NCBI GenBank assembly: GCA_964016885.1
Contig: OZ024764.1
Location: 620,001 to 684,000, forward strand
DNA length: 64,000 nucleotides
DNA from: Eledone cirrhosa
Lineage: Eukaryota
Direction of reading: 5' to 3'
Shown one piece after another: positions 1 to 64,000 of the stretch; position 1 is the stretch's first letter; each line of letters opens with the position of its first letter. Made by a program: the position numbers and the translations under genes. The notes under the pieces were generated by a model, which saw nothing but the letters and a program-made list of their open reading frames with translations, had not been told where the DNA came from and did no database searches.

Positions 1-495
1 ATGACGATGCAAAATCCTGCAAATGCGGGATTGGATAACGGTCAGGCACAGTAATCGCGTTTAAGCGTCGGTAGTCACCCGTCGGTCTCCAATCACCAGA
101 AGATCTAGATACCATATGTAGAGGCGATGCCCAAGGACTTGTGGAGCGCCGAATTATTCCCAATTCCAGCATGTGGTCGAATTCAAGGCGTGCAGCTTTC
201 AACTTCATCTTCGAGGACGTGAGAAAACAGGTGGACCTGTAATGGATATGAAGTGTTCAATCGCATGATCCGGGCTAGTTATTTGTAACTTTCCCTGCGT
301 CAACTGAGGGAATGAATGTAACAGGCTTTGATACTGGTTGCCCACTTCAACCAAGAAAAAGGAAGGGCTGATAGTGGCGACGTCCGGCTCTGAACCCTCG
401 AAAGAAAGGCCTGTTTCAGCATCAAAAAGGCGTTGTCTGCGAATGTCCACCAACAAGGAAAAATGGTGGAGAAAATTCGCTCCCAAAATGGCGTA
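1..495 (-). mobile_element. Gypsy pol fragment (protease end to RT start); near-identical copy of 10391-10885
   Basis: [21 protein letters not shown] and ILGANFL motifs; matches 10391-10885 at offset 10390 with one mismatch seen (467 vs 10857). Confidence 0.95.
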
Positions 496-1494
496 CACAT
501 GTTTTTGGTCACTATTCAATAAAGGTTCCCTTTCTTCTACAAATTGTCGCTGTTCTTCTTTGCTGTATTGAAATTCATGCAATAACTCCAAATTGCCAAT
601 ATCCTGATTAGCGACAATATTATTTGGCCTTGGCAAGTTAAAGTCACTAAGACTTTTGCCCAGGTCGTTAAGTTTGTCTTCAAAATACAGAAGACATTGA
701 TCATAATGTCTCTCGCTAATCAAAAGGCTAGAGTTTCTTGTAGCTCTTTTTTCTATCGGAAGGTAATCCTCAGACAGCGAATTCTTAAATCGAGCCCATA
801 AAGCATTGGAATTGTCAATTTCCGTATTTGTGAGGAGCACGATGAATAGATCTCTCATGGCTTTGGGAAGCCTTGTTCGCTCAGCATCTTCCAGAGTCTG
901 CTGCCAATGTTCATCTGATTGAAGCAGACCTTTCTCTCTGCAAACGTCTTTGAATAATGGCAGGAGTTCTCCATCACACATTTTCAAAGAGTTGAAAGAT
1001 ACTGGTCCTTTGACGTGATGCAGAAGGAGTTTTAAATAATACAGGTCACCACTTCGTGGGGAAACAGTGTACACTCGTCCCAAAACGTTCGCCTCAAAAA
1101 TTCCTGGATACTGCTCAACTGTTTTCCCCACTTTCCTCCTTTCCCATCTCTTATTATTCCATGTGTAAAACTTTGGTACATCGGCATAATACAATGTTTT
1201 TGCAAACGGATCGCGAGTGCAAAGATCCATGAACTCAGTCAGAGTTGTCTTAGCCATGTTATTGTTTACTTTAACAGCAGCATTGACCCGAAAGAAGATT
1301 TGATTTTTCTCAGGTAGATGAACTTGAAGGCGAACTACGGTCGGTTCCCTCTCATGAATTGGAAATCCAAGTACCGAGGCAACAGCTTCTGAAGGACCGA
1401 TATATCTTCCTGTTAAATTCTGTGTTATCTCATCTTCCCTGTTCACTCCAAACATTGCTTGATCACTGCCCTTCATGGTATATTTTATAACGTA
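496..1494 (-). mobile_element. Helitron RepHel fragment A (end of Rep motif 3 to pre-helicase region)
   Basis: YVIKYTMKGSD, RYIGPSEA, VVRLQVHLP, LGRVYTVSP, YYLKLLLHHVKGP; ORF 205..1476 is a Helitron-Gypsy fusion. Confidence 0.93.
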
Positions 1495-4400
1495 CTAGCG
1501 GAGCTACCCGGCTTCGCTCAGTGTTAAAAAGCTTATTTTGAAAAGAATAATATTAACATTTTAATCGTTATTTAAAAACTTCTGTAATTTAGTTTCTATT
1601 TTTTAGATTTTAACATTTATCTTTAAATGACTGAATGACTGACGAATTTAAAGAAAATTCGTTATAAGAACATTTAATTTGTTTTACTGAAGTGCTTTTG
1701 GGTACACAATGTTTTTTGTTTTTCCTTCTGGTGCGTACACGAATAAATCAGAAGGTTTACCGACGCGTGAGCAAGCCACATACAGCTGTCCATGTGAGAA
1801 GCATAGATTTTCTAAATTTAGTCCACACTTGTAGCGATTGTCCTTGTGCTTTGTTGATAGTCATTGCAAAGGCGAGTCGCACCGGAAACTGCAAACGTTT
1901 GAAATCGAATGGCGTATCTGTTGGAATGATTGGGATGCGTGGCAAGAGTACATCTTCTCCTTTAAATTTTCCATTTAAAATTGTAGCCTCGATGATATTG
2001 TTCATCGTCTTATTCACTGAAAGTCTGGTACCGTTGCAAAGTTGTGGTGGATTGATATTTCGGAGAAGGATGATAGGCACGCCAATTTTCAATGTTAAAA
2101 TGTGCGGTGGCATGCCTGGCAAATCAAGTGAATTCAAGAATTCAATTGGATAATTGATAATTTTGTCTTGATTCATTACAGTATCGATGGACTTATACGT
2201 TGTCGCTTCGCCTGGTATTTCGTTTTGAATGCTGAAATTAATGGCATTGACATCGGTGTTTTTGGCTGCTAATATAGCACGTACACTGAGCCACTGATGA
2301 TTTTTGTAATGCTGCGCAATATTTGGGAACACTTTGTGAATCAGTTCGTCTCTGGTTGCCGTGATTCTACAGAAGTTTGTTGGCAATGTGATACATTTTG
2401 TGGAATCATCGATTACCATTTTTCCCATTCCCAATATCCAGCAATTGTTTTGTGAAACGTTCAGCGGATGCGTCATTTTGTAGTTGTACACGCATATTGT
2501 TTTTTAAAGTTAATTTCTGTACGTGTCGCCATAAAACTGATGATTTGAGACATGCATTAAGCTCATCAGCGGGTGTTGATCGCGGTATAACTGGTAGAGT
2601 TTGTCGAAAATCACCAGACAATAAAATGAGTGTGCCACCGAAGAGCTGTTCATTTCCTTTCAAATCTTTTAGCGTATTATTAAGCGCTTCCAATGATTTT
2701 TTGTGCGCCATAGTACATTCGTCCCATATAAGGATTTTACATGATTGGAGTACTTTACCTATACCAGAATTTTTGGTAATATTGCATGTTGATGTCTCAG
2801 CGATTTGCATATTCAATGGCAATTTCAGGGCTGAATGTGCTGTTCGGCCACCATCTAAAAGAGTTGCCGCAATTCCAGATGATGCGATTGCCAGTGCAAT
2901 ATTATTTTCTGATCGTATAGTTGCCAAAATAAGTGAAATGAGAAAAGTTTTGCCTGTACCACCGGGCGCATCTATAAAATAGAATCCGCCGCTTTGACTT
3001 ATAATTGCCTGCATAATTTGGTCATATACTATGCGTTGTTCTGGTAGCAATTTGGGAAGATTCGTTTGAACAAATGTACCCAATTCGGCGACATCAAAGT
3101 TTGTTTCTCGTTGCAAATCACGATCGAAAATGTCGTTTACAGATCGATTCGGCGCAGGCATTCCCAATTGTACCAGTGTTTTGTTAGCGATTGCTAAACA
3201 TATGACCTCAATGGAAACCAATGCTTCATTATACACATTTGGTGTGAATTGAATATTCATATTTTGATTTGTTGCACGCAAACGATGTAGGATGTCTTCA
3301 CTCATGTAGTCTTTATATTTTTCCCAAAGATCTTTTGGATTTGATGGGAAGCACGTTGTCAATATTATTGAGAATAATGTGCGTATTTGCTTTGGTCGAG
3401 CAGTATTCGATGCATCAGCGAGTGAAGTGTCCCAATGTCCATCATTTTCAAGAAGATTTAATTCTTGGCAAGCTTCACGATAAGTGGCACATACTTGACC
3501 GTTTACTGTTCTCAATTCTTGTCTCCAAAAACATGATGCTTGACAATGAAATCGATTAAAGATTTCAATTTTTGTTTGAACACACGCGCTGTAATATCAT
3601 GACGATCCGAAGATGATTGACCAGGTAACAGCGTCCGGCAGTGGTAGTAGTGATCCAGCACGATGATAAATTTGCCCTTGCACTTTGAATGTTGGCATGT
3701 AATTCTCGCGCACGATATTTGTTGCACCGAACGATGTCATTTGGAAACATGAATTGTACTTGCGTATGTTTGCCAAGAAATGTTTAGATTCGCTTGTGTC
3801 ACCTGATACTAACGTTGATAATGGTTCAGGTGGTGGATGGAATTCTGGCAATTTCACTTTTCCACCCGAGCAGCACTTTCCTGGTGTTTCATTTTTAAAT
3901 TTGAGGGCACCACAATACCCGCATAATTTATCCATTTTTCCAATAATCACATTTGGATGAAGACTGTAATCACAATTTGAATCGTAATGAAATGCACCAA
4001 GATTGAAATCATCGTGCAGTATTCTTCTTGTGAGAGCATTGCGTAGTCGATTCGTTTCCAATCTTGCTTCCCGTTGCTCGTCTGTTTCAGATGAACGGGC
4101 TTGAGCAGTTCTTACTCGAACGGTTTGCAATCTTGCTTCCCGTTGCTCGTCTGTTTCAGATGAACGGGCTTGAGCAGTTCTTACTCGAACGGTTTGCAAT
4201 CTTGCTTCCCGTTGCTCGTATGTTTCAGATGAACGGGCTTGAGCAGTTCTTACTCGAACGGTTTGCAATCTTGCTTCCCGTTGCTCGTATGTTTCAGATG
4301 AACGGGCTTGAGCAGTTCTTACTCGAACGGTTTGCAATCTTGCTTCCCGTTGCTCGTATGTTTCAGATGAACGGGCTTGAGCAGTTCTTACTCGAACGGT

Positions 4401-4538
4401 TTCCAATCGTGATTCCCGTTGCTCGTATGTTTCTGAAGCTCGTAATGCATATTTTTTCGTTGCTTGAGGGGTAGATTGACCAATCGCTCGTAGTAATATC
4501 AAATAGATTACTATATGTGTTTCTGGTCCAGTATTCAT
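1495..4538 (-). mobile_element. Helitron B with intact 3' end, PIF1 helicase, internally deleted Rep and STPR-like N-terminus
   Basis: Minus-strand 3' end GCGAAGCCGGGTAGCTCCG-CTAG|T (CTAG at 1495-1498); PIF1 motifs DAPGGTGKT, IWDECTM, GDFRQTLPV, FAMTINKAQGQS; zinc motif CGYCGALKF..CCSGG; sequence jumps near 3515 and 3660. Confidence 0.95.
4060..4440 (-). repeat. 69-bp (23-aa) coding tandem repeat, STPR-like, about 5.5 copies
   Basis: Unit SETYEQREARLQTVRVRTAQARS repeated in ORF 3597..4538. Confidence 0.9.
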
Positions 4539-4539
4539 T

Positions 4540-4716
4540 CTGAAATTCCAGTAGTGTTAGTCTAGCATGTGTAATAATATTAATGTCATCCAAAGTTAAG
4601 TTAGATCTATTTTTAGCAAATATCAAGGCTTTGTTCAGGAGTATAGGTGATATAGAAGAATAGTAATTATCTATATCAAATTGTAGAAATGAAGCAGAGG
4701 ATTTATATCTAATATA
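4540..4716 (-). mobile_element. Naiad-type PLE RT fragment (left flank of piggyBac)
   Basis: Translates FLQFDIDNYYSSISPILLNKALIFAKNRSNLT. Confidence 0.85.
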
Positions 4717-4720
4717 TTAA

Positions 4721-7279
4721 CCCTTTAGCATTCACATTGAATTGTCAAATGTCATGTTCATCTATTCGCATTATTTTCACTTAATTATACTCAAGAGGGT
4801 TATCAATTTTATTTGTTTGTAATTACTTTAATTTTCTATGTGCAGACTTGAAATTTTGTCAGTAGACGTTTAAAGAACTATAATTTACAATTATATATTT
4901 TTACCTGATTTTTTTTTGTTAAATTTGACTTTTATGGGCAGGTAAAATTAATTAACAGGTGTAAAAGTAATAACTTTATGGATAAACACAAAAATTTAAA
5001 CTTTATCTGCCTTACCTGTTAGATTTGTTGCAAAAAAATCCAATAATGATCTAGATGCTGATTTCCATCAATTCTAGCAGTTTTCCGAACAGGTGAATTA
5101 ATTAAAAATGCAGGTGTAATCAGTACAATGTTTTAGTCTTTCTCTACATTCCAGGCAAATATTTTCATTGAAAAAAATGTATAAAACCTTTTCACCAGTC
5201 AAAATAATATTGGCAATGTACTCTTACACAATGTACGGTGTAAAATTACGTAACAGAATGTTCCCAATATATAAGTTCATTAACAGGTGTGTCACAGGTG
5301 AATGCAGGTGTTTTTGTATATGTGTGCTAATATATTTTAAAAATAGTGTTTTCAATATTGTTAGACAATATTTCTATCGTGATACTGCCCAAAGCACCCT
5401 TTACATAAGGGCACTTTGCAAAAGGAACACATAAATAGGGTTTGGATTGCGTAACCTTTAACAGTTTTTCTCTTTTGCAAAGAGCACAATCGGCAAACCT
5501 TCCTCCTACCATCAATTCTCTCCACTTTATGAAAATCAATATTTTCTTTGTGGACCACTGCTAATTTTGATTTTTTTTTCCCAGCTTTGTGTTTGCGAGA
5601 AGTATATCCCCCACGTAGCTGGGATGCAATGTCCACGCGAAATTTCATGTGGCAGTAGTCCTTTGGTGGTGGCGGATCCTTGTGGCTTTTAGTAAATACA
5701 ATATAAGAATTCACAATGGTTAAATTCACTAAAAACCACAAGATGTATCTCCACCATTTCTTTCCAGGGCGTCCAACTGGGTAATACGCGCAATATTGGT
5801 CGGATTTGTCAACCCCACCCATATATTTATTGTAGGAGAGGTTAACTAAAGGTCTACCCTCAGCCCCAACACCTGGTTGTTGGTTAGAACTCAGGAACAA
5901 AATTTGCCGTTTGTCTTTGAACACTGCGGCTAACATGTTCTCTTTTTGCATTTGGAGAATGTCTCCTCTGTTTTTTAGTTTCGCAACTTTTATTTCTTGG
6001 GGTAGCCCTTTCCGATTGCTCATTATTGTGCCGCAGGTGTACGTATTTACAAGAGCAAGATCCTCTGCTAAAAGCACCGAAGAAAAAAAAACGGTCATAA
6101 TAAATGTGTCTGTGTTGAAAGTGGAAGGGTTGAGTCAGCGACCACACAACATCATAACCCAACCTGTGCTTTCTCTCTCCGTTAAGTTTTTTTCCTGTGT
6201 AAACATCAAAGTTTACACAGTATCCCGTGTCCGATTCACACTTCCCACACTTTGATGCCCCATTTGGTGGGTTTAGCTGGCATATACTGTCTGAAATGAA
6301 CCCTACCCTTATATCCAATCATAGCTTCATCAACACTAAGATTTTTTCCAGGTATATACATACTTTTAAATTTTTCCATCAACATTTCAATTAATGGTCG
6401 TACTTTGTACAGTGGGTCGTAATTCGATTCATTTCTACCAGGGGCATTTGTAGTATCAACCAGATGCAAATACTGGTTTAATTTTATAAATCTCGTTTTG
6501 GCCATAATACTAGATATATAAGGGTCACCAAACCTTATATCAGTACTCCAATAATTCCACAGTCGTGGAAATTGTTTAATACCAAACATAATGTTTATGG
6601 TAAAAAACGCTTTCATTTCGGCAGAATCTGTCGGACGCCATAAAAGATCGGGATTTGCTCGATTAGAAATCTGTTGTTGTGCATAGCGATTTGTCTCCTC
6701 TGCCACAACTTCGAAGAAAGTTTGTGGTAGAAATAAAAAAAAAATAATCCAGAGCTTTAGCATCGGGTGGTAATGTGTGTTGTGGTCCAGAATTTTCATT
6801 AAAATCCGAAACATGTATCGGTGTTGTTTCTTTCAACCACGTTGGTGTTTTTTCAATGGTGTCAGATATCTCTTCGCTTTCACTTTCAAAGTGACTATCA
6901 TCATCATCAGATATATCAGAAATAAATATATCTGATTCATTTGAAGATAAATCACTGATATTATCTTCTGTTTCTTTGTTATCTTGAATGTCGTATGATG
7001 TGAAACCTTCAAAATCGTTGTCGCTGCTTTCGGAAGCCATGTTACAATTTCAAAGTTAAAAACACGTGTTATCACAAGGTCTTTAACTATACTAAGAGTT
7101 AATTTTCGCGCGTAAGGGCTTTATCTCGCTGTAATCTCGAATTGACGAGATTTTGATGATGTCAATGTTTATTTTTAGAAGGATATCTACGAGTGGTCTG
7201 AAATGTCGGTTTTTGTCGGTTTGAATAAATGAAAGGGGACATAATTTTGTCGGTTTTTGTCGCTTTGAACGCTAAAGGG
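4721..7279 (-). mobile_element. Full-length piggyBac transposon (PGBD4-like transposase, frameshifted) with TTAA target-site duplication
   Basis: TTAA 4717-4720 + CCCTTTAGC ... GCTAAAGGG + TTAA 7280-7283; motifs SVDEAMI, KPTKWGIK, YYDRFF, YNKYMGGVDKSD and C-terminal Cys-rich domain; ORF pieces 6663-7040, 6236-6814, 5884-6318, 5361-6098; repeated ACAGGTG motifs at 4900-5310. Confidence 0.96.
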
Positions 7280-7283
7280 TTAA

Positions 7284-7480
7284 ACCACTCAATAACCTCA
7301 CCAGTTCCCTTCCACAAGTTTAAGTTAGGTAAACCATGTAAGTTTTTAACCTGCTGTATCACCCTGTCTAGAATGTTTTTGCTAAGTTTACCCAGGTCAG
7401 ATTTTCATGGTGCAATCAATCTGACTGGCAAATCATTTTCAAAATTTCTTTTGTGATCTTTCATATTGATCTTAGGTTTC
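7284..7480 (-). mobile_element. Naiad-type PLE RT fragment, related to 56285-56485
   Basis: KINMKDHKRNFENDLPVRLIAP ... LWKGTGEVIEWFN. Confidence 0.85.
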
Positions 7481-7994
7481 TTTTCTTTTAAGGCCCTAGA
7501 CACTCTAGGGAGTGATGAAAGTATTCTTAGCGTTTTGATATATTGATATCTGTTGTCTATTCTATACATGAACAATAATCATGTATGTGAGGGCAGGAAT
7601 ATTTATATTACGGCAGGATGGCACGGGTCCGCCACAGTTACAGGCTAAATTTCTACTAGTGCAGCCTAAATCACAGTACACGCTTTACATAAATACATTA
7701 CATCACAACTCATGCGCATACAGAGGTACAGATCAACAAGATATACGTCAGGATAGGTCCACCAATGCACTAATGGTGGGTAGGCCAGCGTTGATGGGTT
7801 ACATCCACTGTACCAAACAGGGGTGCTTATTAACATACACTCCCCTGCACACCCCAATATCAAGGTCAATATCCTCCCACAGGCATACGTATACATTCAC
7901 AGACTCGTATACATAGACGACCAACATTAGGAGACAGTTACACTCAGTCAGAGACAGTTACACAAGACAGCCCAACTGGAGGAATAAGGACGTG

Positions 7995-9213
7995 CTAGCT
8001 AACAGGTTTAAAGTAGAAGAAAGAGCTTAATATTCGGTGGGGGCAAGAGGAAAAAATTTCAGACTTTCTATTTAGTAGAGGGCATTTAGCAAATATAATA
8101 GAGTGGGATTCGGCAAGGCACAGGTTGCATACTCTACTATGAGGAGTATATGGATGGGATTTAGCAACCTGCCGCCAAGTAAGTGTGTAAGGTGTTCGTG
8201 CATTTTTTAAATTATGGACGTACGCTGCCAAGGAGGTGGAGTTCTTCAGTTTATTATGTCTAAAAGTGCATTGATGAGAGTTAAACCTGGTCTTAAAGGG
8301 GGTGGAAGTTGATCCTATATAGGTCATAGTGGACGCCGTAGTTACCACATCACACGCATAAACTATGTTTCTAACAAGGCAGAAACCATTCAGGGGGCAG
8401 CCCGAAGCCCTTCTACAGTTACAACCTCTGGTGATGCTATTCTCAGAAAGATCACCACCAGTGCTACTGCCCACTCTATCCACTACCGTGTTTTCCCCTA
8501 GGCTTAGGTTGTCCAGGCCTTCCTTTATTTTCTTATTATTAGTAATGGCCAGATGAGAGGCCAGATTTTGGGTTGTAGAATACGAAAGTTTAACAACATT
8601 CTTATTGAGGATAGAGTGGTACCTATTACCAGGAGGGAAGTTCCGTTCTAGCACAGAGAAGAAGGCCCTAGGAATATTTGTAGCCACTTCAGAATTAAAA
8701 GGGGGGTTGAAGTATGTATTCAATCTTCTTCTATTCTTTTTATTCTTTCTATTTCCATCAGTATTATTAGCATTATTATTTCTACGGTTCCTATGCTCAC
8801 CTAGTCTATGCGGGGAGCTGCGAGGCCCACCATTGCTATTACTTAGACTAATGGTGCCATGCTGGTTCATTCCACCGGCATCTAGAAACCTCCCGTTCAC
8901 GACACCTCTATTGTTATTACTTAGACTAATGGTGCCCTGCTGTTTCATTCCACCGGCATTTAGAACCCTCCCATTCGCGACACCTCGATTACCAATGGAC
9001 ATATTATGTGTTATAACAACACTGGTAGAGCTACTATTAGGACTATTATTTCCCTGGGTGTAATACAATTTGTCCCTAAAGCCGGATCTAGCTAAGGCGT
9101 CGTTATAGTAATCAGCCTGCGAGTCAAACGCCTCCTCACTATGTGAGAGTGAACTTATTCTATTAGATACGCCCTTCAGTATACCGCTGATGACAGACCT
9201 AGGGTGGTTGGAG
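7995..9213 (-). mobile_element. Naiad-type PLE thumb, linker and GIY-YIG endonuclease
   Basis: SNHP, YFNPPF, CNCRRASGCPLNGFCL, NIVYAC..TYIGST, FKTRFNSH, CNLCLAE, SSCPH. Confidence 0.92.
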
Positions 9214-9261
9214 TAAATGAAAGGGGACATAATTTTGTCGCTTTGAACGCTAAAGGGTTAA
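9214..9261 (-). mobile_element. Isolated copy of the piggyBac terminus plus TTAA
   Basis: Matches 7226-7283 minus one 10-bp GTTTTTGTCG unit. Confidence 0.92.
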
Positions 9262-9948
9262 ACCAGTTAATTACCTGGGATGTGTTTTCCCAGAGTGGTA
9301 AATTAACATGTTTTCTTATTTGTGGGATGACTCTATCTAAAATTTTTTTACTAATTATTCCAATATCAGATTTGGAAGGGCATATAAGTCTTATAGAAGG
9401 ATTATAGTTAAAGTTTGATTTATGATCTTTCAGGTTGAAGTGTGGTCTTTTCAATGCCAAAGATTCAGTTCTATCTTCAATATTAAGTCTATTCACTATG
9501 CTGTGTGTTTTGTTGTTGATGTTGGTAAGTGACGCATTATTTGATTTTCTATAATTTTTCCTGAGTTCTTTGTATATGAACTCATTGTAATTTTCAATAT
9601 CCATGTGATATAGATTTCCAGTTTTGTCCGAGTGGACATGGATTTTTTTAGATTTTTTTTAGGTCCTTTTGAAAGTTAGATTTATACCTCTTAAATTTGA
9701 GGTGTTTGATTAAATTAAAAATGTCTTTCTCAAAGTTTTCAAGTAGAGAGTTGTGTGGTGGAATTTTATATGTAGTGAAATCATAGATATTTCCTATCTG
9801 TACATTTTGATTTTTTATCGAAGTGGTAGGCCCTCCATCTGACTCTTCTGATAAATTGGTTGGTTTTTTGTATCATAAGAAGTAAGAAATCATCCTTAGA
9901 AGGTAATGGTATATTCTTTAAAGAAGTTCCCAAGTATTGTTTTTCCAT
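9262..9948 (-). mobile_element. Naiad-type PLE N-terminal/RT fragment (frameshifted)
   Basis: MEKQYLGTSLKNIP, RRVRWRAYHFD, SDKTGNLY, LKDHKSNF, PSKSDIGIISK. Confidence 0.92.
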
Positions 9949-10069
9949 TGTGATATGGATAATGGACAAGAAAAAGAGCTCAACTATTTGTATATGGAGT
10001 TATAAAGCCATACATACAGTGGCGGACATGAAAGTAAGAACACTTTTTATTTTGCATGGAAGCATTAAG

Positions 10070-12751
10070 ACTTGGAAGCATTAATACAAACATTATATCT
10101 CTGTAAACGACGAAATACGAGATCCAGATGCTTTGAATGCTGCTGAGGGGAAGAACTAGCAATCAACACGTCATCGATATACGTGTACACACAATCCAGG
10201 CCCCGAGTAATATCATCCATAAATCGTTGGAAGGTACTTGCAGCATTTCTAAGGCCGAAAGGCATAGTGAGGAAATCGAATGATCCGAAAGGAGTGGCAA
10301 TAGCAGTCTTTGGGATATCCTCCTTTTTAACCGGAATTTGATTATAAGCGCGGATCAAATCAAGCTTAGAAAAGATTCTGCAACCCTGCAATGACGATGC
10401 AAAATCCTGCAAATGCGGGATTGGATAACGGTCAGGCACAGTAATCGCGTTTAAGCGTCGGTAGTCACCCGTCGGTCTCCAATCACCAGAAGATCTAGAT
10501 ACCATATGTAGAGGCGATGCCCAAGGACTTGTGGAGCGCCGAATTATTCCCAATTCCAGCATGTGGTCGAATTCAAGGCGTGCAGCTTTCAACTTCATCT
10601 TCGAGGACGTGAGAAAACAGGTGGACCTGTAATGGATATGAAGTGTTCAATCGCATGATCCGGGCTAGTTATTTGTAACTTTCCCTGCGTCAACTGAGGG
10701 AATGAATGTAACAGGCTTTGATACTGGTTGCCCACTTCAACCAAGAAAAAGGAAGGGCTGATAGTGGCGACGTCCGGCTCTGAACCCTCGAAAGAAAGGC
10801 CTGTTTCAGCATCAAAAAGGCGTTGTCTGCGAATGTCCACCAACAAGGAAAAATGGGGGAGAAAATTCGCTCCCAAAATGGCGTATGGCAAGTCGGCGAT
10901 AGTAAACTTCCACTTCAAATTTTTTAACCGAAGAGGAAGCGAAATTTGCCCGTACGTTCGAATGGCCGTGTGGTTGACTGCTCGTAGATTTATATTTGAT
11001 TCAGCTGGGCTTTTTTTTTGAGATAACTGACTGGCCAAATACTCAGCGACGCCCCAGTATCGACAAGGAAACATTTTTTTGACCGCGGGTCGTATACGAA
11101 AAGATGGCGGTTCGGTCGGTTTTCCCAGAGTTCACTAGCCGCCCCTAGTGGCTCTGCTTTGCGTTTCCCGATCTCTTGTAATTACAGGGCGTGCGACAAC
11201 GTTGTGCCCTACTGCTGAAGTTAGCATGATACCAACACAACGAAGAATTATTGTTGTCTGCATCGTAGTGCTGGCGATGAATAGAGGACAGCGGCGAACG
11301 ATACCTCAAACGTTGAGAAGGCTCTCTGTGATGTACAGCCAAATCTTCTACCTTTTTGGTGAGAGCTTCAATCAACTCCAACAGTTTGCTGTCGGCCACA
11401 GAAGAATTGCGTGGGGGGACGCAAGCTGAAACCACATAAGGATTATGCTGATTGCTGTTCGAGTCCACCTCAAGTATTCTATCCGCGGACGCGGCAAGTT
11501 GCTCTAACGACTCCTTCTCCAAACTATTAACCAATATCCTTTGCGCACTTGGCGGTAGACGTGAGAAAAAAAGCTGCTTTATGAAGGGGGTGTCAATCTC
11601 CTGGGAGTCGCTCAAATCCCGCAAATGTCGAAAAATAGGAGCTCGGCTTCCTGTCACCTATTTGAGCATCGTCCAACAACTCCTGAAAATGGCTCTCTAC
11701 CGACTTGGTATTTCTGCGAAGAATTTCGTTTTTTAATGAGCCGTAGGTAACGTCGGGGTCCAAATCCGTCACAACGTCCTTCACCGAGAAAGCCAAGGAA
11801 ACAGGTAGGCCATTGATCAGGACCTTCAGCTTATGCTGTTCCTTTGTCTTGGTTAATTCAAAGAAACATTCCAGCTGCGCAAACCACAACTTGATGTCGC
11901 CTGCGAAGGACGGCAAATGATGTTGACTCATGGTGCCACGTATTTGATGAATTTTTGGTGTTGGTTACTAGTTAGCCAGGTGTTGCTGCTGATGGCTGGT
12001 ACGTGGTGGTATCCGTTTTGAAATACTGCTAAGTTTTTTTTCTTTAAAAAAAATATTCTAAAGAAAATTTGAATAATAAAAAAAATCATTTTCTATGAAA
12101 ATTAATGGTAAGAAAATCCAAGATGGCTGATTTAAAAATGTGTCCGTGATGAAGAAGCCGTCATGTGACACGATGCAGCCAATCAGATGGCTGGGATTGG
12201 AGAAGACAAGCTGAACGCGGGAAAACAAAATATCTGAGTCTCCATTTGTAATTTCCACAATGTTGAAAGCAAAATTCTATATCCAGAGAAATCCTTTTTT
12301 TTTTTTTTTGTGTTGTATTTTTGTGTTTGTCTGTATGTCTGCTTTAACAAATGGAATATTATGAATTTTATGGACTTACGCTAAGTGATTCGAACATTCC
12401 AAATGTTAAGCCATTCCACATTGCCGTTAAAACGAATGGCGAATTCAAATAGGCTGCGTTTTCATACTTAAACGTCGAGGGTCACCAATAAAGAAAATTA
12501 ATGTTTCTCTTTGTTGAATAAATAAATGAACAATCAAATCTAACGATCATTTTATTAAATGCGATAATTTATTAAATTTCCTACAACGTCAATATTTTGG
12601 GGAGCGAATCTTTCCACGTCTGTTCATGTCCGCGGTCCAAAGAGAGTGAGTGAACCTGCGTCTGTGACCGGATGTATTTTACCTCCGCTCTCTGAAGGGT
12701 TGTTAAGGGGAGGCAACTGCTAGTTGCCAAGCGACCATCTCAGCCACTACA
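10070..12751 (-). mobile_element. 5' half of a Gypsy LTR retrotransposon: LTR, PBS, gag, protease, RT (truncated, frameshifted)
   Basis: LTR starts TGTAGTGG at 12751; PBS TGGTGACCC-TCGACGT at 12472-12487 resembles the complement of the tRNA-Trp 3' end; gag LWFAQLE, CWYHANF..C..PC; [17 protein letters not shown]. Confidence 0.93.
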
Positions 12752-12956: not shown

Positions 12957-13147
12957 GGGGTCCCTAAAAATGTATACACCATTCTAATATATATATTGCC
13001 TGTACAGGTAATCAAAGTGTGTATACTTTTTTCGGGGACACCATATATATATATACGGGCGTCCCTAAAAATGTATACACCATCCTAACAAATAATGCAT
13101 GTATAGGCAATCAAAGTGGGTATACATTTTTTGGGGGACAACCTGTA
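12752..13147. repeat. Tandem array of about four ~85-bp Tc1/mariner-type MITE units separated by (TA)n
   Basis: Units CCGGGGTCCCTAAAAATGTATACA ... TGTATACATTTTTCGGGGACACC form imperfect inverted ends flanked by TA. Confidence 0.75.
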
Positions 13148-13249
13148 TATACACAAATATGAACATATATATAGAGAGAAAGTGTGTGCAAGCAAGCAAA
13201 CATCGAGATCAGAGTTTTAGCAGTGGATAGATAATATACTTTCATCTAT

Positions 13250-13465
13250 TTATTTAAGCACCATAACCTAAAAATTGAATTTCTAAACAACGTCAAACTA
13301 GCTAACTTCCTGGATATATCCCTTAATCTTGACACCGGCCTATATTACCCTTACCATTAAGACAATGAGAATCTAAATTATGTTAATTTTAAATCTAACC
13401 ACCCTATTAACGTTAAAATTGCTATAGTCAGTAATATTGAAAAAAGAATCTCAAATCTATCTTCT
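13250..13465 (+). mobile_element. Naiad-type PLE RT/thumb fragment; the only plus-strand TE coding piece found
   Basis: Plus frame NLKIEFLNNVKLANFLDISLNLDTGLYYPYH*DNENLNYVNFKSNHP..EKRISNLSS. Confidence 0.85.
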
Positions 13466-15880: not shown

Positions 15881-15919
15881 AACTTCAAAGAGATTTTTAG
15901 TTTTATCAGAAAGAACAAA

Positions 15920-17830: not shown

Positions 17831-18007
17831 TTAGGAGAGATGGTCAGATATCCCTTCTAATTGAATGTATAGTGTGGGCACATTATCAAGCAAAAAAGAA
17901 CATGCCTTGGGATTCATAAGCCTAAGAGGGTTTAATCAGCGACTGACGTCGGAACTACAGACTGTTAATCGACTGCCTCCTAAGTCGACGCTAGGTGGTG
18001 TAATCTT

Positions 18008-20134: not shown

Positions 20135-20159
20135 TTTTTAGTTATCTTAGCCGTGTGTG

Positions 20160-24322: not shown

Positions 24323-24367
24323 TTCGGAGACGTAGGTTGATAGGTTACTCGACTGTAAAGGAGTGTG

Positions 24368-38760: not shown

Positions 38761-38774
38761 TTTCCGGTAGTGTT

Positions 38775-40880: not shown

Positions 40881-40884
40881 AATA

Positions 40885-54800: not shown

Positions 54801-57006
54801 CTACATTTTAAATTTAAATTTATATTTAAACGTTGAGTTTAATCTATGTTTGCAACAACTGAATAAATTTGTCCGTAGGTTAAGGGAATTTTTAGATTTT
54901 AGTATAAAGAATATCTCCTCTGCGCAGAGGTCACATGTCTCAGATGATGAATTAAAAGGAATCCCTCTTGAGACTATATTCCAAGCCGTCGAATATCTAA
55001 CGTTATCTAGCTTAAGTTGCCAGAGTACGCCTGATAGTGCCGTTGAAGATTTTTTACTTGGATCTGTGAAAGAATTCTTGTGGTTATTATAGCGAAGTTT
55101 AAATTCCGTCGATGTGGAACCGACGTAGTTAAAAGAATTAGAGTCAGTATTAACATTACAATTGTATACTATATTTTTAACTAAGCAGTTGTTATTTAAC
55201 GGACATTTAGATCTATCTCTACAGTTACATTTGTTAACTTGTATATTATTTATGCTATTATCAGTAGGTTTTAAGTTCCTATTATTTATTCTATTAATAT
55301 TTTGTGCTAAATTTTTGGTGGATGAGTAGGTCAATTTAATTGTATGCCTATTGAAGATTGAGTGATACCTATGTGTTCTAGGGAAGCGATTATCAAGAGC
55401 TTTGAAAAATAATTTAGCGATGTGGGTTTTAATGTTTAGTGAGAAAGGGGGGGGCAAACCAAATTATGTTCCTAGTTCTATTTCTTTTTTGTCCTTTGGA
55501 ATTATTGTAATGCTTTCTATTATAGTTGTTAATGTTGTTGCCGTAATTAAAAAAGTTGTTACTTTGTTTAGTTTGTCTATCATTATCTATGTACACAATC
55601 TTATCAGCATATCCTGCCCTAGCTAGTGCATCATTATAGTACTGGGCCTTTTCGTCAAAAATCTTTCTATTCAACGAAATCCTAGAGATACGTTTTTGGA
55701 CTGAGTTTACTATAGTGTTTTTGACAGATCTGGGGTGGTTAGAGTTAAAGTTGACATAGTTTAAGTTTTCATTCAACTTGTGAAAAGGATAGTGGAGACG
55801 TGTTGAGATTTAATGTTATATCTAGGAAATTGACTATTCTATGGTTGTTCTCAATTTCTATTTTAAGGTTAAAGTAATTAAAAAATTTTGTAATTTGTTT
55901 ACATTTTCTATTTAGTTCAGGGTTATTATTATTAATAAGTAAAAGCATGTCATCCCTATATAAACCTCCGGTAGTACCAGGTATTTTCCTATGTAGCGAA
56001 TTGATTAAAAATAAGCCCACAAGGTCAGTTACCTGAGCTGAGTCGGAAGATCCCATAGTTATGTCAAAATTGCTATCTCTATCTGCTCTGGTCCATAATT
56101 TGTCATTAAATTCTATCAAAGTTTTCCTAGCCGATAATATAATATGCATTTCTTTGCTAGTTAGGTCAGTATGTTTGAATGCGTAATTTAGTGCCTTATT
56201 TAGTAGACTAGGGGTAATAGAAGAATAATAGTTAGCTATATCAAGTTGAATAAACCTATTATTATTGTTATATTTAATTTGCCTAAACCACTCAACAACC
56301 TCTCCAGTTCCCTTCCACAAGCTCAGGTTAGATACACAATCCAAGTTCTTAATTTGCTGTATCACCCTGTCAAGAATGTTTTTGCTTAATTTGCCCAGGT
56401 CCGATTTTGAAGGTGCGATCAATCTAACTGGCAGGTCATTTTCAAAATTCCTCTTGTGGTCCTTCATATTGATCTTCGGTTTCCTGGGCACGAAAGGTTG
56501 TGTTCTGTTCTCAATTTCCAACTCGTGCATTATACAAGATGCTTCGACATTCATTTTCTCAAGTTCGGCCTTACCTTGTACTTTTTCCTCAGCTCTTTCA
56601 GTATGAGGCCATTATACATGTCTTTCCGCACTCCATAGAGGTTGTTGGTCTTGTCAGATTTCACCAAGATCTTCACAGTTTTCTCTAAGCTCTCAATGTT
56701 ATCCTTAATGCCTTTCAGATATTCCTGGCCTTTAAAGTTTCTCTTGAATTTGACCCCTTGTATGATAGAAATTATATCGTTTTCAAAGTCAGATAAAAGT
56801 TTGTTAGGGGGTGGATTTCTTTTAGATTTGAAAACTTTGTTTAAGTCCGAGATATTTTCGTCTGCATTAGATTTATCAAAGTGGAATGCACGCCACCTGA
56901 TTCTCCTTATAAAAGAGTCAGATTTATCTATTAATTGTTTTACAAAGTCTTTGTTTCTAGGTAGAGGTATGTCTTTTAGAGAGGAAGTAATCTTAAAGAA
57001 TTCCAT
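54801..57006 (-). mobile_element. Full-length Naiad-type PLE ORF (frameshifted); terminal-repeat copies at about 53280-53460 and 57050-57300
   Basis: SLKDIP, SDKT, QLDIANYYSSI, MGSSDSAQ, YRDD, CNCRDRSKCPLNNNCL, NYVGST, CDLC. Confidence 0.94.
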
Positions 57007-57053
57007 TTTTCCAGTTATAATATAAAGCGCTCAACAGTATTGGAGCAAGATAC

Positions 57054-57568
57054 ATGTAAAGTTATATTTAAAATTGTTGGGTTACAACTAGTAAATATTT
57101 ATAACTGATATAAAAGCACTTGACAAATATTTGGAGTATATTTACAATATTAAATAAATGGAAAACTATATTTATAAAACCATATTTATTTCATTATATA
57201 TATTTCGGGGATATCATATTAACAATATGCTATGCCTTCATCAGACAAAATACAATATAAACAGTTTTATAGATAAATAGATTCGACATACCGTAATAAA
57301 CCTCTTCAAATGAAGTCGGTGTTTATTACGGTATGTCGAATCTATTTATCTATAAAACTGTTTATATTGTATTTTGTCTGATGAAGGCATAGCATATTGT
57401 TAATATGATATCCCCGAAATATATATAATGAAATAAATATGGTTTTATAAATATAGTTTTCCATTTATTTAATATTGTAAATATACTCCAAATATTTGTT
57501 GAGTGCTTTTATATCAGTTATAAATATTTACTAGTTGTAACCCAACAATTTTAAATATAACTTTACAT
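57054..57568. repeat. Near-perfect inverted repeat with ~250-bp arms; each arm carries a hammerhead (minus 57187-57252, plus 57370-57435)
   Basis: Arms are reverse-complementary around the spacer CTCTTCAAATGAAGTCGGT (57302-57320). Confidence 0.95.
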
Positions 57569-57674
57569 ATATATACACACACACACGCACACGCACACAT
57601 ACATACATACACACACACACATACAAATATATATATATACGCATATATACACACATAAAACACATATACACACA

Positions 57675-57716
<42 letters not shown>

Positions 57717-57932
57717 TACATATACACACTTACAAACAAATGTATACACATACAAATAAATAGGTACTCAATAAATATACGCATATACGCAAGCACATAA
57801 AGACACCTCTACAGGCAGAAAATGTAGATACGAAAGAGGTACTCACATAACCATAGTGGCCGTATTTCAGGTTGAGGAGGAGTGGGGGTAGGGTGGGGAG
57901 GAGGTATAGGGGCCAATAGGGGGAGGTCGTTT

Positions 57933-58310
57933 TTAGCCATTGGGCTTTAACACTGGCTTAAAGTGTTTGAAAGTTGCAAAGTTCTTGTGCATGCAGTTCG
58001 GGCAGTGTTCAGAGAGTTTGTTCAGTAGCGGGCCCTTGGCGAATAAAATTTCGTAGCTCTCTGAAATACAAAGGTCGCAGCCCTTGTGTCCTCCGTTGTA
58101 AGAGCGCGCTTTCTGGAGTATTTTCCAATTAAGCGTGAAGGGGGTGGAGTTCCTTTTGAGGTCCCAAACGTAGGAGGCGAGTGTTGTCTGATTTGATTTA
58201 TCCGGTCTTCTGAAGGAGTGGGTATGGGCATACCAACGGGTCTTAAAGTTGTTGGAGGTCATGCCGATGTAAGTTTTTTTGCAATCCTCGGTGCCTGAGA
58301 TGACATCGCA
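57933..58310 (-). mobile_element. Naiad-type PLE GIY-YIG fragment
   Basis: IYKC..TYIGMT, FKTRWYAH, CDLCISE, CMH. Confidence 0.88.
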
Positions 58311-58330
58311 TTTGTATATATATATTAATA

Positions 58331-59262
58331 GTATTGAAATTTCCGTTGGAAACAGAAAAGGTCATAGAAATGAAGAGTGTTCTATGTAAGTATCAGAGCA
58401 AAATTTAATGTATAAAAATCAATACAATATAATTACCTCATTACCAGAGGTTTCCCGAATGAGGCGAATACGAAATAAACGACTTCATTCGTTCGTCAGA
58501 CGAGGCAATATAAAACATGGGTAAATACTTAGAAAAACTCAAGAAAATCAAAAAAAGATATAGATAAATGAAATAGAAATTGAAATATATAAAAATCTAT
58601 CAAGAAATATAGTTAGGTGTGTGTATATGTATGTATATACGCTCACAGATGTGCATATATGTATATGCGCACATGTATATGTATAGTGAGAAAGTGTGTG
58701 TAATTCTAAAATTTAGGGCAAATGTATCTATATGTCTGTAATCTACAGACAGAATAGTTACATCATAAATATATGAATATGAAGGCGCGCGCATAAAACG
58801 CCTGCACACTCGTACACTTAGATGCGGAAAGAAAGGAGGTAAGGGCGTGTAATAATTAAAAGAAAAGTATCAGTCTCGATATATTTATAAAAATATAATA
58901 AGGATAAATTAGAAAGAAAAAATTAAAGAAAACAAAAAAAGGGGGTACATACATACATACACAGACAAGCGTGTCTCACAAAAGAAATGTAAAAATAATT
59001 ATGCTTATATACACACGCGCACTTACACATCCATCCATACGTACACACACACACACACACTTATACTCACGCATATAAACCTGTTTGCATGCCCACGCAT
59101 GAAACTGAGTAAGTAAAAAAAAAGGAGGGGGGGGGGGAAAGAAAAAAGGAACAAAACATAAAACCGAGATGTCAAAAACACGGATATAAAGACACGTACA
59201 CATACGCATAATATATACATACACACACACACAAACACATGTACACACACACATATATATAT

Positions 59263-59308: not shown

Positions 59309-62090
59309 GCACGCGCGCGCACATACGTAGTCACTCATGTACATATATAAAAAGTATACACACATTAAGGCGTTCAGCCATATTGATACAGGGTGTAAAA
59401 AACTTGTGGGATAAATAAGTACAAATATAAAATTGTAAGATAGGCTGCGCAAAAATAAAATAAAAATAAAAATAAAAATGAAAAATATATCTGGATTGAA
59501 AAACACAAAAGACATGTGTAATCAGTTAGTGGAGGAAAAAGGGAAGTAAAAAATAGAAAGTGGATCGGAGAATAAAGGGGGGAGGGGATGTGAAGTAAAA
59601 ATAAATGAAATTATTGACAAGGATAAAAATGAAAGTAAGTCAGAAAGGGTAGTTAAAAAGAATAATAAGAGTTAATGGAGGATAAGTATCTGAAAGTGTG
59701 TTAAGTTTATATGAGCTGGAAAGCCGGTGTGATTTCATGTGTGGGCAACTGGTGAAAATTTCCATCTTTGTGTTCAGGCAGGTCTTTGGTGATTTTAGAT
59801 TTTGCAATATCCAAAATTTTTCATTTATGCAGAGCGTGCATTTTCTTGTTCCTCTAGCATATTCTTTAGATTGGTTCAAAATTGACTAATCTAGTTTATA
59901 TTGGATGCCTTGGTCTTTCAAATCCCAAATTCTGCTAGCCAGAGCTGTTGTAAATCTTTTTTCTGGATGTCGAAAGGATGCGACATGTGAGTAATAACGC
60001 GTTTTGAATCTGTCTTGCGTCATACCCACATATCGTTCACTGGTGGCTGGATGGTTGTTGCTGATGGTTGTCACTTTAGCCGCATATACAATGGCTTTGG
60101 TGTTGCATTTACCTTGTAATGGGCATTCACTTTTGATTCTACAGGAGCAAGTTTGATTTTCTCTAGGTGATATTTTGTTGAGGATATAGGACTTAATAGG
60201 GGGACCGCAGGAATAGCTAATTTTAACACAGTTTCTGTTAAAGATCTTATAGTATCTATGTGTTCTAGGGAAATGTTTATCTAGGAGTTCTAGGAATGTT
60301 TTGCCTACATTAGTTTTAACTGCTAGAGAGTAGGGGGGTGTGAACCAGATTATTTTTCTTTTCCTATTTTTATGTTTAATAGAGTTAGTGTAGTTAGGTA
60401 TGTATTTAATCGGTTCGCTAAAGCCGCTATTTTGGAGGGCTTTATTATAGTAGGGGGATGCCTTATTAAAAATAGCTTCTGAGGAAGAGAGGGTGGAGAT
60501 CCTACGGCTAATATTAGGGATAAGGTTTTTAAAAACTATAGGTGGATGGCAAGATCCTTTATTTATATATTTTAAGTTTTCATTAGGTTTATGGTATGGT
60601 TTATACGAAGCAGTAGGCAAATCTAGGTTTATATCTAGGAAATCTATGTTGGAAAGGTTAGTGTCAATAGTAATTTTAAGATTAAAACTAGCGAAGGTTT
60701 TTATTAAGTCTTTCCTTAATCTATCTAAGTTATGGCCTATGGTGGTATGGGAAAGTATTAGACCATCATCGCGATAAAGCCCAAAAATATGGTTAGGAAA
60801 TTTTTCTTTAAGTGTATGTAAGAGGAATAGGCCGACCAGATCACAAACCTCGGCACTGTCATAAGAGCCCATTGAGACATAGAATGGGTTCTCTGGGTTA
60901 GATATTTTTACCCAAGTGTCATTATCATTAAAAAGTAGAGTGTTCCTAGCATGCAAGATGACATTCTCTTCAATATCGGAGATATTAGTGAACCCTCTAG
61001 CGAAATTTAAAGCTTTCACTAAAAGGGTCTGAGTAATAGATGGGTAGAAATCTACAATGTCAAATTGGGTGAATCTAGAACTGATTTTGTTTTTAATATT
61101 ATTAAACCAATGTACTACGGAAGAGCTATTTATCCATTGGAATAATTTAGACTTACTTCTAATGTGTGTATTTAATTTATTTAAAATTTTTTTGCTGGCA
61201 AGACCAATATCAGTCTTAGCAGGGTTGATTAATCTACAACTAGGACGATTAATAAAGTCGGGTTTATGATCTTTAAGGGTGATATACGCAGAACGTTTAG
61301 CAAGTTTTCCTGTCCTATTATCTATTTTTAAAGAAACAGCTAATTCTTTAGCTTCCTTATTTATATTATGGTACGTATTTATATTAGCTATTTGGTATTT
61401 AGAGGTGATATTATCTATTAATAGTTGGTCGTGTAAATTATTATTAACTTCATATAGGTTTTTAGTTTTATCAGAGAAGATGAACTTATTAGAAGATTTG
61501 AAAGTAGAAATATCATTAGATAATTTAGATTGAAAGGGGTTAGAGTACTTACGAAAAATGATGTTGTTGATAAGGTTAACTAGGTCTAATTCAAAGGCGG
61601 TCATATCTTTTACTCTTTGCGGGTATTTGTGAGTTTTGATGTCAAAATATTCCGTAGAATCCGTGTTAAATTGTCCATCGAGAATCAAAGCTTTCCATCT
61701 CATTCTTTTAACAACCTTCTCTACTTTGTCTATCAGTATTTTCGTGTAGAGAGTGTTAGGTGTTGGGATATTCTTTACAGAGTAGTCCAAAGGGTATTTA
61801 TCCATGTTCGGTATTGGTTTAAAATCCTATAACTGAAGAGTGCTCGACTTTAAAAGGGCTGGAAGGTGCCAATCTCATAACGATGTAGAATATGCTGCGA
61901 TCATTCCCTTGGGAGCTTTATAAGTATTGAAATTTCCGTTGGAAACAGAAAAGGTCATAGAAATGAAGAGTGCTCTATGTCAGTATCAGAGCAAAATTTA
62001 ATGTATAAAAATCAATACAATATAATTACCTCATTACCAGAGGTTTCCCGAATGAGGCGAATACGAAATAAACGACTTCATTCGTTCGTC
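58331..62090 (-). mobile_element. Complete Naiad-type PLE insertion: near-intact ORF (59886-61805 plus frameshifted 59640-59879), direct terminal repeats and 8-bp TSD
   Basis: TATTAATA at 58323-58330 and 62091-62098; repeats about 58331-58498 and 61923-62090; SVKNIP, QFDIVDFYPSI, MGSYDSAE, YRDDG, CSCR..CPLQGKC, RYVGMT, CTLC. Confidence 0.95.
58436..58505 (-). ncRNA. Hammerhead ribozyme (CTGACGA variant) in the Naiad 3' repeat
   Basis: cctcgt-CTGACGA-acgaatga..tcattcgg-GAAACC-tct-GGTA-atgagg; the upstream copy is cut off within the core at 62090. Confidence 0.8.
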
Positions 62091-62764
62091 TATTAATATA
62101 TATATATATATATATTGTTATACTTGGGGAGGGTCATATTTGCGTAATATTGCCAGAATTAATAACAGAACACACTCACTGTTTGGTTGGTTTTCGCTTC
62201 TCGCTGTCTTTTATATCTGCGATCTAACTTACTCGGTCCTCAATGTTGCCATTGACTGACCGACGGTCAAAAATAATACAGATACAATATAGACACAAAC
62301 ACATATATATAGTTTACATAATTTACATAAATCTTTCGTTGCACATCTGCAACATCGTCACTGGTGTTATATTTTTTTCCTCCTGTTGTGTTGTATGTCT
62401 ACGCCATTTTTTTATTCAGTCTGTCTATATATTTATTTATTTATTTGCTTGTTTGTTTATTTTATTTTGTCTTCTTTGCGCATGCGTTTGCGTGTGTGTA
62501 TAGTGTTATGTGTGCTGTGTGTATAGTGTTGTGTCTGTTGTGTGACTAGTGTTTGTTTATGTGCTTGTTGTTATTGTGCTTGTGTATGTATTTATTTATC
62601 TTATTTTATTTTATTTACTTATTTATACTTCTCTTAGGTCAGTGTTGTTTGTTTGGGTGTTGTTCCACTCATTCTTTCTGTTTAGCTTTGGTCTTCTAAT
62701 TTCTATTTCACTGGCCTCTCTGATTTGCCTATCTGCTGGGTCATTCCTATGTTTAGATATTATT

Positions 62765-64000
62765 CTAATTTCTATGTTGTCTAGCATGTTCGTATAGTAC
62801 TGACCCGTTTTTTCGTCCTTTTAGTTCCCCCAAGTGTTGGTCTATCCTTTCACCTATGCTACGAGCTGTCTCACCTATGTATGTTGTTGTCATGTTTCTG
62901 CAAGTACCCTCTGTACATCTTATGCTATAGACTACGTTTCTAGTTTTACAGTTTATCCGGGGGTTCACCTTACATATGATACATTTCCTATTGGTACAGT
63001 GGGTTTTCTTAAAAGGGTAGGTTTTGCTGATCAGGGATTTTATGGTGGTTCCTGGCTTTTCTACCACCTTTATTTTTAAGTGGGTCTTTCTCAGGGCCTT
63101 TCTACACTGGTTAGCTAATTTCCCTCCAGGGGTGCCGTCCACAAACATGACACTCTGATATCTCTGGTTGTCGTACCATGATGTGGCCTTCCCTATCTTA
63201 TGTCTAGCCCTATCTAAGCTATTCCATGATTTGCTCCTGTATAGTGGGCAAATTCCTTTCATGTCCAGTTCTATGAGGGTCTTATACTTTTCCATGGCTC
63301 CTTCGTATACTCTGACTCTGTCTCTTTGGTTGTAGCCAGAGAACTGCATGCGGTTGATGAAGTGTTGGATGTGTCTTTCCATTTCTGTTGGGTCGCACAT
63401 GCTGGACACATTCTTCATCACTCGTACCAAATCTGCGATCAGAATATTAAACTTAGCACTACTGGACATTGCTGAGTTTTTGAGTATCAGGTATTTGGAG
63501 GCCATAGGTTTAGCATAGTGTGAGTGGAGAATTTGGGCTCTCTCGTCTATAGTGTTAATCCAGAGTTCTGTGTCTAATACAGGTAGTCTATTGTTAGGGT
63601 GTTTGGAAGGGAAGTCGATAGTTACAGTTATACTCTGGTGTATGGAATTAGCTATCTGCTGGATGCTTTCCATCGTGCTACGTTCTAAATCAAACTTGTT
63701 AGTGCTCTCTAGTGGGGGTGTTCTTATAACTATATTGATATCGTCTACATAACGAGAGTACATGATGAGGTCTATGGAGCTTTCATTAGGGAGATCTTTA
63801 AGTCTCCTTTCCCACCTACCATGAAAAGGTTGGCAACATCACAAGCTATGCTGACGCCGATGGCTTTTCCCTCATTTTGGGTGTAGATTTTCTCATTGAA
63901 CTTGAATATGTGGCTCTTTAGGGTAGTTTTGATACTAGCCCCTATTGCATGTGCGACCATTTTTCTTACCTGATCAGTGTTTTGGGGGGTCCGTATAGCT
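62765..64000 (-). mobile_element. Non-Naiad PLE RT, thumb and GIY-YIG (continues beyond the window)
   Basis: AIGVSIA..ANLFM, YSRYVDDI, LPVLD, CxxxxCxxC linker, NVVYSIRC..TYIGETAR. Confidence 0.88.

Follow-up and report, generated by a model that had tools for sequence, protein, structure and literature searches.

A transposon array on one strand behind FKBP6 in Eledone cirrhosa, a candidate read-through piRNA cluster

Why should the transposon remnants of a long stretch of cephalopod DNA lie almost entirely on one strand? The question is raised by 64,000 nucleotides of the Eledone cirrhosa genome (assembly GCA_964016885.1, contig OZ024764.1, positions 620,001 to 684,000; hereafter the window), in which coding pieces of many transposable element (TE) groups are packed on the minus strand. 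We refer to the contig as C25, so that window position 1 is C25:620,001 and the window ends at C25:684,000. The assembly searched comprises 3.0 Gb in 1,796 contigs, with C25 contributing 29.35 Mb. An earlier note on this DNA proposed a PIWI-interacting RNA (piRNA) cluster resembling flamenco of Drosophila. Given the analyses presented below, we suggest, with a probability of roughly 0.6, that the window belongs to a downstream-of-gene, uni-strand source of piRNAs, which would be made by read-through from the gene FKBP6.

The bias is apparent both from protein families and from homology. Among open reading frames of at least 60 amino acids in the window, 22 of the 149 on the minus strand match Pfam TE families, and none of the 139 on the plus strand does so (two have spurious repeat matches). 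Segments called by tblastn with a library of the locus's own TE protein frames, and then merged, number 32 on the minus strand and one on the plus strand (37.5 kb versus 0.26 kb; binomial P=8e-9). The imbalance that the earlier note had counted by hand as about 40 to 1 is thus confirmed at 32:1, the higher figure being one of split pieces. Grouping the 33 segments at 80% or higher nucleotide identity yields 30 groups, 29 minus and one plus (P=6e-8); because this imbalance remains, duplication does not explain the bias of the window.

The window is the middle of a single-strand array of ~163 kb (C25:581,852-744,500), whose borders we placed from the contiguous sequence of C25:520-864 kb and which reaches ~38 kb upstream and 60 kb downstream beyond the window edges. 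Forty 5-kb samples across C25:1-2.0 Mb indicate that the window's TE families are confined almost wholly to its vicinity. The whole array holds 82 minus and two plus segments (102.7 kb versus 1.7 kb), which form 48 sequence groups at 80% identity carrying 11 TE or virus labels, with a ratio of 47:1 in favor of the minus strand (P=3e-13). In the array parts that flank the window, 16 of 99 minus-strand frames have a Pfam match, as do none of the 71 non-redundant plus-strand frames.

Controls show no such orientation. Pooled over 661 kb, and with short 'Helitron' matches stemming from one non-coding library segment excluded, they contain 35 minus and 38 plus segments. This mixture is seen in the upstream flank including the FKBP6 introns (C25:520-581.8 kb; 5 plus, 5 minus), the downstream flank (8 plus, 14 minus), the DNA behind four Piwi/Argonaute loci (10 plus, 5 minus), four random 40-kb stretches (6 plus, 7 minus) and 32 sparse C25 samples (9 plus, 4 minus). 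An equal bias in ordinary TE-rich DNA, which the earlier note had said would count against a cluster, was therefore not seen. TE-coding density, calculated after removal of self matches and matches of at least 90% identity and with a library that derives from the array, is 50% in the array versus 8-9% in controls, and tandem repeats make up 6% of the array versus 44-52% of its flanks. We conclude that the orientation of the array is a real, non-chance feature.

Could the orientation be a by-product of transposition, through nested insertions, template-jumping chains of Penelope-like elements (PLEs) or long interspersed nuclear elements (LINEs), Helitron capture, tandem duplication or mis-assembly? 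In its favor, fragments are joined directly end to end, a 10.4-kb triplication whose units are >99.9% identical may stem from the assembly, and PLEs are known to form tandems (PMC8557442; here and below, papers are cited for the parts of their text that were available). However, the common strand runs through all but one of the 48 groups, and it is shared by a cut-and-paste Merlin element with both inverted ends and by a DNA-virus insert. With 40.9 kb of duplicates removed and neighbours of one class merged, the ratio stands at 42:1 (P=1e-11), which largely refutes duplication. Of adjacent elements that differ in class, 52 of 56 pairs within the array are co-oriented, compared with 16 of 33 among the controls (Fisher P=4e-6). 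We consider such a by-product very improbable.

What, then, might read the array on the plus strand? The following features lie outside the window:

C25:550,953-581,184, plus strand: FKBP6 gene, its stop 668 bp ahead of the first TE
C25:581,852-583,636, antisense to FKBP6: Merlin element with both inverted ends kept, the first TE of the array
C25:592,419-594,397, minus strand: parvovirus-like insert with NS1 and VP (capsid) frames, from Pfam
C25:697-744 kb: block of L1/Tx1-like LINEs

The absence of host genes claimed earlier holds inside the window but not outside it, where FKBP6, on the plus strand, ends 38.8 kb upstream and is directed toward the array. Its 13 exons, bordered by AG/GT, join into an open frame of 490 codons with its stop at C25:581,182-581,184, although one exon's 3' border and the first coding exon are uncertain. 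The exons have FKBP_C and TPR Pfam matches, and the product is 53% identical over 447 amino acids to the protein P0001, which clusters with one named FKBP6. Its sole named close relative is a cuttlefish protein (53% identity), and exon 2 has a single PDB match, human FKBP6 (E 0.006). The gene is thus probably an intact FKBP6/Shutdown, assigned by domains and best-named relative rather than by a tree against FKBP4/5. FKBP6/Shutdown is a co-chaperone of piRNA biogenesis (PMC9606565; 10.1101/2024.11.13.623522). Beyond the far end of the array, Pfam comparison of 145 candidate frames (C25:744-864 kb) yielded one weak match and no convincing sign of a host gene.

Only a TA/TG microsatellite separates the FKBP6 stop from the first TE, and this interval contains neither AATAAA nor ATTAAA; the first AATAAA is at C25:582,260, inside the Merlin element. 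Because the stop codon precedes the array, we rejected the reading of the array as a coding intron of FKBP6. The last intron of the gene is a 6.5-kb minisatellite (C25:574.4-581.0 kb) directly ahead of the last exon. As in downstream-of-gene clusters, the array has a sharp 5' edge at the end of a gene encoded on the predicted precursor strand, with its TEs antisense to that gene, and it is plausible that the antisense Merlin element was its seed.

A uni-strand piRNA cluster with its own promoter, located for example in the first TE, the 3' microsatellite or the satellite that forms the last intron, would make FKBP6 a mere neighbour. All results on strand bias and density fit this arrangement equally, and AATAAA occurs on the plus strand from C25:582,260 on, so the FKBP6 mRNA could end less than ~1 kb past its stop. 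On the other hand, the array begins within 0.7 kb of the stop codon with nothing but the microsatellite between, and a second array, behind NAF1 on contig C12 (described below), has the same gene-then-array geometry. From this layout, read-through from FKBP6 appears the better explanation, and a dedicated upstream promoter unlikely.

Under FKBP6 read-through, RNA polymerase II would transcribe the gene on the plus strand and, part of the time, would fail to terminate past the last exon, continuing through TE and viral remnants for as much as ~163 kb. Antisense insertions, which the bias shows to be in large excess, may have been retained as a source of antisense piRNAs against active families and sense insertions lost. 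Truncation and local duplication are evident in the array, and deletions together with duplications may have compacted the locus into coding-rich fragments. By analogy with known biology, the read-through RNA would be processed into 1U piRNAs, which would direct Piwi proteins against TE transcripts. Three sequencing runs considered as expression evidence were set aside, as they represent one sample and are DNA-like (16-17 million contigs; pieces identical to the locus have a depth of 7-10, and repeats one of hundreds to 400,000).

Sense TEs inside transcripts are generally purged. The array could accordingly sit in a long transcript or 3' extension that has no piRNA role, with sense insertions removed for disturbing FKBP6 mRNA processing, and the bias is indeed oriented relative to a known plus-strand gene. 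Yet the FKBP6 intron region is unbiased, and the DNA behind the four Piwi/Argonaute loci is mixed. Purging alone also leaves unexplained a six-fold enrichment of coding remnants and the scarcity of tandem repeats relative to the flanks. We regard a transcript of this kind as quite unlikely.

The eight TE groups named in the earlier note (PLE, Helitron, Gypsy, piggyBac, pogo, Tc1, mariner and RTE) are all present in the window, with an L1/Tx1-like ORF1 piece in addition; the rest of the array adds Merlin, L1/Tx1-like LINEs and the parvovirus-like insert. By class, the 85 segments include 29 PLE, 21 Tx1-like, 13 Helitron and nine Gypsy, in agreement with the earlier view that long terminal repeat elements do not dominate. 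The L1/Tx1-like and RTE-like labels are ones that we presume from motifs, as Pfam gives only RVT_1, zf-RVT and Exo_endo_phos. Of three word-index protein searches, two had no match and the third found RTE relatives at 57% or less; the window has no Rfam match. Its features, in window positions, are as follows (RT, reverse transcriptase):

208-4556, minus strand: Helitron RepHel pieces (STPR repeats, Helitron_like_N, PIF1, Pif1 2B), from Pfam and tblastn
492-10885: unit 3 of a tandem triplication, Helitron-PLE-piggyBac-PLE-Gypsy, 10.39 kb, 99.93-99.97% identical to both upstream units
5364-7049, minus strand: piggyBac-type transposase, frameshifted (DDE_Tnp_1_7, zf-Tnp_2), from Pfam
7255-9969, minus strand: Hydra-clade PLE pieces (RT, CxCX5C linker, C-terminal GIY-YIG)
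10068-11964, minus strand: Gypsy-type gag (DUF7041) and RT pieces, from Pfam and tblastn
13147-13708, plus strand: PLE fragment, the sole sense-strand coding piece, a 97.7% copy of C25:597,464-598,023, another plus-strand PLE 36 kb upstream
14312-15867, minus strand: pogo/Tigger-type element (DDE_1), shorter at both ends than genomic copies
15869-20612, minus strand: PLE, Gypsy gag, RTE-like endonuclease (18,011-18,844), PLE, Gypsy gag, PLE and Tc1 (HTH_Tnp_Tc3_2) pieces, back to back
22051-24394, minus strand: Hydra-clade PLE, near full length, broken
24877-27978, minus strand: further PLE pieces
28094-30647: two tandem repeats (32-bp x 11.7; 31-bp x 52.5)
32333-33798, minus strand: GC-rich PLE RT of another lineage
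35849-38738, minus strand: Gypsy RT, L1/Tx1-like ORF1 piece (36,739-37,115) and mariner transposase pieces (Transposase_1)
38739-40966, minus strand: Hydra-clade PLE
40967-46121, minus strand: Helitron pieces of several families
46889-47783, minus strand: Gypsy gag piece
49358-51228, minus strand: PLE RT (RVT_1)
54804-58361, minus strand: Hydra-clade PLE, divided by a palindromic element from a further PLE endonuclease piece
57,050-57,572: the palindromic element, 523 bp, near-perfect, with 252-nt arms at 99%; related pieces at 51.5 and 53.3 kb
59703-64000, minus strand: Hydra-clade PLE (646-amino-acid frame, RT then C-terminal endonuclease) and a PLE extending beyond the window end

The other two units of the triplication are at C25:599,710-620,495; at such identity the repeat represents either a very recent duplication or an assembly artefact. 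Antisense ankyrin-repeat coding fragments occur in this array (C25:590,933-591,286, minus strand) and in the C12 array, where they are in tandem with PLE pieces. A minus-strand frame of 428 amino acids (C25:727,280-728,563) with a weak match to Ulp1 protease adjoins a Helitron RepHel and is probably a Helitron accessory gene. In the upstream flank, the translation of a fragment at C25:527.8-528.2 kb presumably resembles small-subunit ribosomal RNA sequence. A Tudor-domain exon lies on the plus strand at C25:480,901-481,059, ~70 kb upstream of FKBP6.

The main PLEs had been called Naiad elements, an identity that we rule out. Naiad PLEs have an N-terminal GIY-YIG endonuclease (PMC8557442), whereas the 646-amino-acid frame carries RT-DD at residue 351 and YIG at 599, placing GIY-YIG at the C terminus. 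The Hydra clade is characterized by RWK and DKT motifs, a CxCX5C linker, and a C-terminal endonuclease that has no CCHH and carries CxxC and CxH around a conserved E/N (PMC8557442). RWK and DKT are present here, and CxCX5C and CxxC...CxH were each found in five of eight PLE frames checked; frames 62,768-63,838 and 49,358-50,749 have neither motif and may belong to other clades. By these motifs, most PLEs here are Hydra-clade. Elements of this clade appear young and abundant genome-wide, many with open frames of 700-800 codons; the available text of PMC8557442 lists only few Hydra-clade families from molluscs and other phyla.

How old is this content, and is the locus still at work? The array carries antisense copies of recently active families, because PLE and pogo relatives are dispersed and highly identical. 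Of 149 other genomic matches listed for the PLE at 22,051-24,394, on both strands, 94 have at least 90% protein identity (hand count); among the matches listed, many have open frames of >700 codons, and the best are 96-97% identical in DNA. The window's pogo copy is 91-94% identical to seven dispersed genomic copies. Together with the 50% coding density and the 48 groups, these young relatives form a dense archive of the kind expected of a uni-strand piRNA cluster, and the 82:2 array ratio beside mixed controls supplies the expected strand bias. A former cluster, silent now and persisting as a layout, would account for the many fragments that are old, array families being 64-85% alike. However, insertions 93-97% identical to dispersed copies are still antisense, as are the very recent duplications. 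A silent relic therefore seems highly unlikely to us, and a read-through source locus remains our preferred reading.

The parvovirus-like insert offered a marker for similar loci. A search with parvoviral NS1 gave 73 matches genome-wide, often grouped on one strand and many of them on contig C841; parvovirus-like inserts with NS1 and capsid frames also occur on C841, C998, C27 and C12. At five loci we predicted the strand from the parvoviral matches before sampling 24-35 kb at each. Segments fell on the predicted strand in 22 of 26 cases at C12:8.97-9.10 Mb, 17 of 20 at C3:58.12-58.21 Mb and 11 of 12 at C18:15.03-15.09 Mb. The C12 array, mostly minus, comprises PLE, piggyBac, Gypsy, Helitron, pogo and parvoviral pieces. 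NAF1 exons are on the plus strand at C12:8,958.0-8,963.2 kb, and ~2.2 kb after a NAF1 exon lies a minus-strand Helitron that is 97.5% identical to the window's Helitron at 208-4556. The gene-then-antisense-array geometry is thus repeated behind NAF1. The C3 and C18 arrays are on the plus strand, the former rich in Tx1-like LINEs and the latter in tandem GC-rich non-LTR elements that we take to be R2/NeSL-like; no driver gene was found for either.

These arrays do not appear to accompany piRNA genes in general, an idea that we dropped as unsupported: the genome holds four Piwi/Argonaute-domain loci, and the 30-50 kb behind each is ordinary. Among best candidates, no Tudor, Maelstrom or AAA_12 match adjoins the C12, C3, C18 or C27 loci. 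On C23, where a weak helicase match lies close to parvoviral pieces, the DNA proved ordinary and contains a zinc-finger gene that presumably resembles octopus ones. A viral-looking frame of 1,080-1,585 amino acids on C12/C27 carries Helitron domains.

Several observations weigh against a read-through piRNA cluster. Transcription, its strand and piRNA output are all predicted from the layout of the DNA alone. AATAAA is not depleted on the plus strand across the array (126 observed versus 131 expected under a Markov model), and nothing in the sequence thus points to special protection against termination along the 163 kb. Recent duplication accounts for ~41 kb of the array, and the TE library was made from the locus itself, so that unrelated families on either strand may escape it, although Pfam found no TE family in any plus-strand frame (0 of 139 in the window, 0 of 71 in the flanking parts). 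The sister samples are sparse and their counts include local duplicates; two of the five loci, C27 (4 of 5 on the predicted strand) and C23 (3 of 5), are not significant, and because the last NAF1 exon was not located, the C12 array could begin in an intron.

The closest known counterparts are the read-through clusters of mosquitoes (Qu et al., 10.1101/2022.08.22.504762), which are uni-strand, lie directly downstream of protein-coding genes, contain antisense endogenous viral elements (EVEs), and occur at several loci behind different genes. The present array resembles them in its downstream-of-gene, uni-strand layout, its antisense viral insert and the number of loci per genome. It differs in that the mosquito clusters trap non-retroviral EVEs and are demonstrated by small RNA and chromatin data, whereas we rely on DNA only and find many TE classes together with a parvovirus-like EVE. 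In the text available, Shutdown is a required factor for the mosquito clusters and not a driver gene; here FKBP6 is a candidate driver. Mammalian pre-pachytene piC-DoG clusters (PMC11615739) likewise have flam-like packing of antisense TEs downstream of a gene's last exon. Antisense TE insertions in host 3' untranslated regions (UTRs) also serve as piRNA sources (PMC13226689) and likewise lie behind a stop codon, but they are single insertions and not a 163-kb array. The identity of the host gene is reported to be irrelevant for piRNAs derived from 3' UTRs (PMC13226689), and FKBP6 may therefore be an incidental host of the array.

Large uni-strand arrays antisense to an inferred transcript, visible from DNA strand bias, are also known as flam-like clusters in Drosophila (PMC10643416), where the bias is driven exclusively by Gypsy elements. 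The flamenco-like character first proposed for this locus therefore stands for the uni-strand layout read on the plus strand, but not for its content, in which PLEs, L1/Tx1-like LINEs, Helitrons and DNA transposons dominate and Gypsy is a minor class. As to the promoter, flamenco has its own.

Within molluscs, the slug Arion vulgaris has uni-strand, densely packed TE-antisense clusters (PMC11615739), for which driver genes are not described in the text available, and unidirectional piRNA clusters are reported from Deroceras laeve (PMC12506671). The kind of locus is therefore already known. Clusters in six other molluscs measure 2.7-17 kb (PMC11067994), and TE piRNAs of the oyster are antisense-enriched (PMC6128900). 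Octopus piRNAs have been profiled in O. bimaculoides arm tips, in a report whose available text gives no cluster anatomy (PMC12479628). The available parts of PMC11615739 contain no cephalopod cluster, and two of its supplements do not name Fkbp6, Naf1 or shutdown. The earlier note knew of no such locus in cephalopods, and in the literature searched, with most subscription papers outside its coverage, we found neither a cephalopod piRNA source locus nor a cluster driven by FKBP6 or another piRNA-pathway gene; uni-strand, TE-packed clusters as such are not new, given those of slugs. Judged from sequence only, the array is a strong candidate for such a cluster formed by read-through, and its putative driver gene is an unusual one.

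In the large, TE-rich genomes of cephalopods, the array is one sizeable candidate with defined coordinates, for which a strand and a driver gene are predicted; viral inserts served as markers that led to three sister candidates. Small RNAs of O. bimaculoides have been published (PMC12479628), so the prediction could be checked at the orthologues of FKBP6 and NAF1 with no new experiments. If it is correct, molluscs would join mosquitoes and mammals in having read-through clusters, and a piRNA-pathway gene as the driver of a cluster would be an arrangement that we did not find in the literature searched. We speculate, although we think it doubtful, that cephalopods keep a master archive of transposons and viruses as a 3' extension of the piRNA-biogenesis gene FKBP6/shutdown. 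In that case, a single promoter would provide the co-chaperone for loading along with the piRNA precursor, within the same cells, and how often transcription terminates or reads through would set the ratio of machinery to guides. Should octopus species share the position behind FKBP6 while its inserts are replaced over time, the position would act as a fixed trap, recognizable from genome sequences alone.

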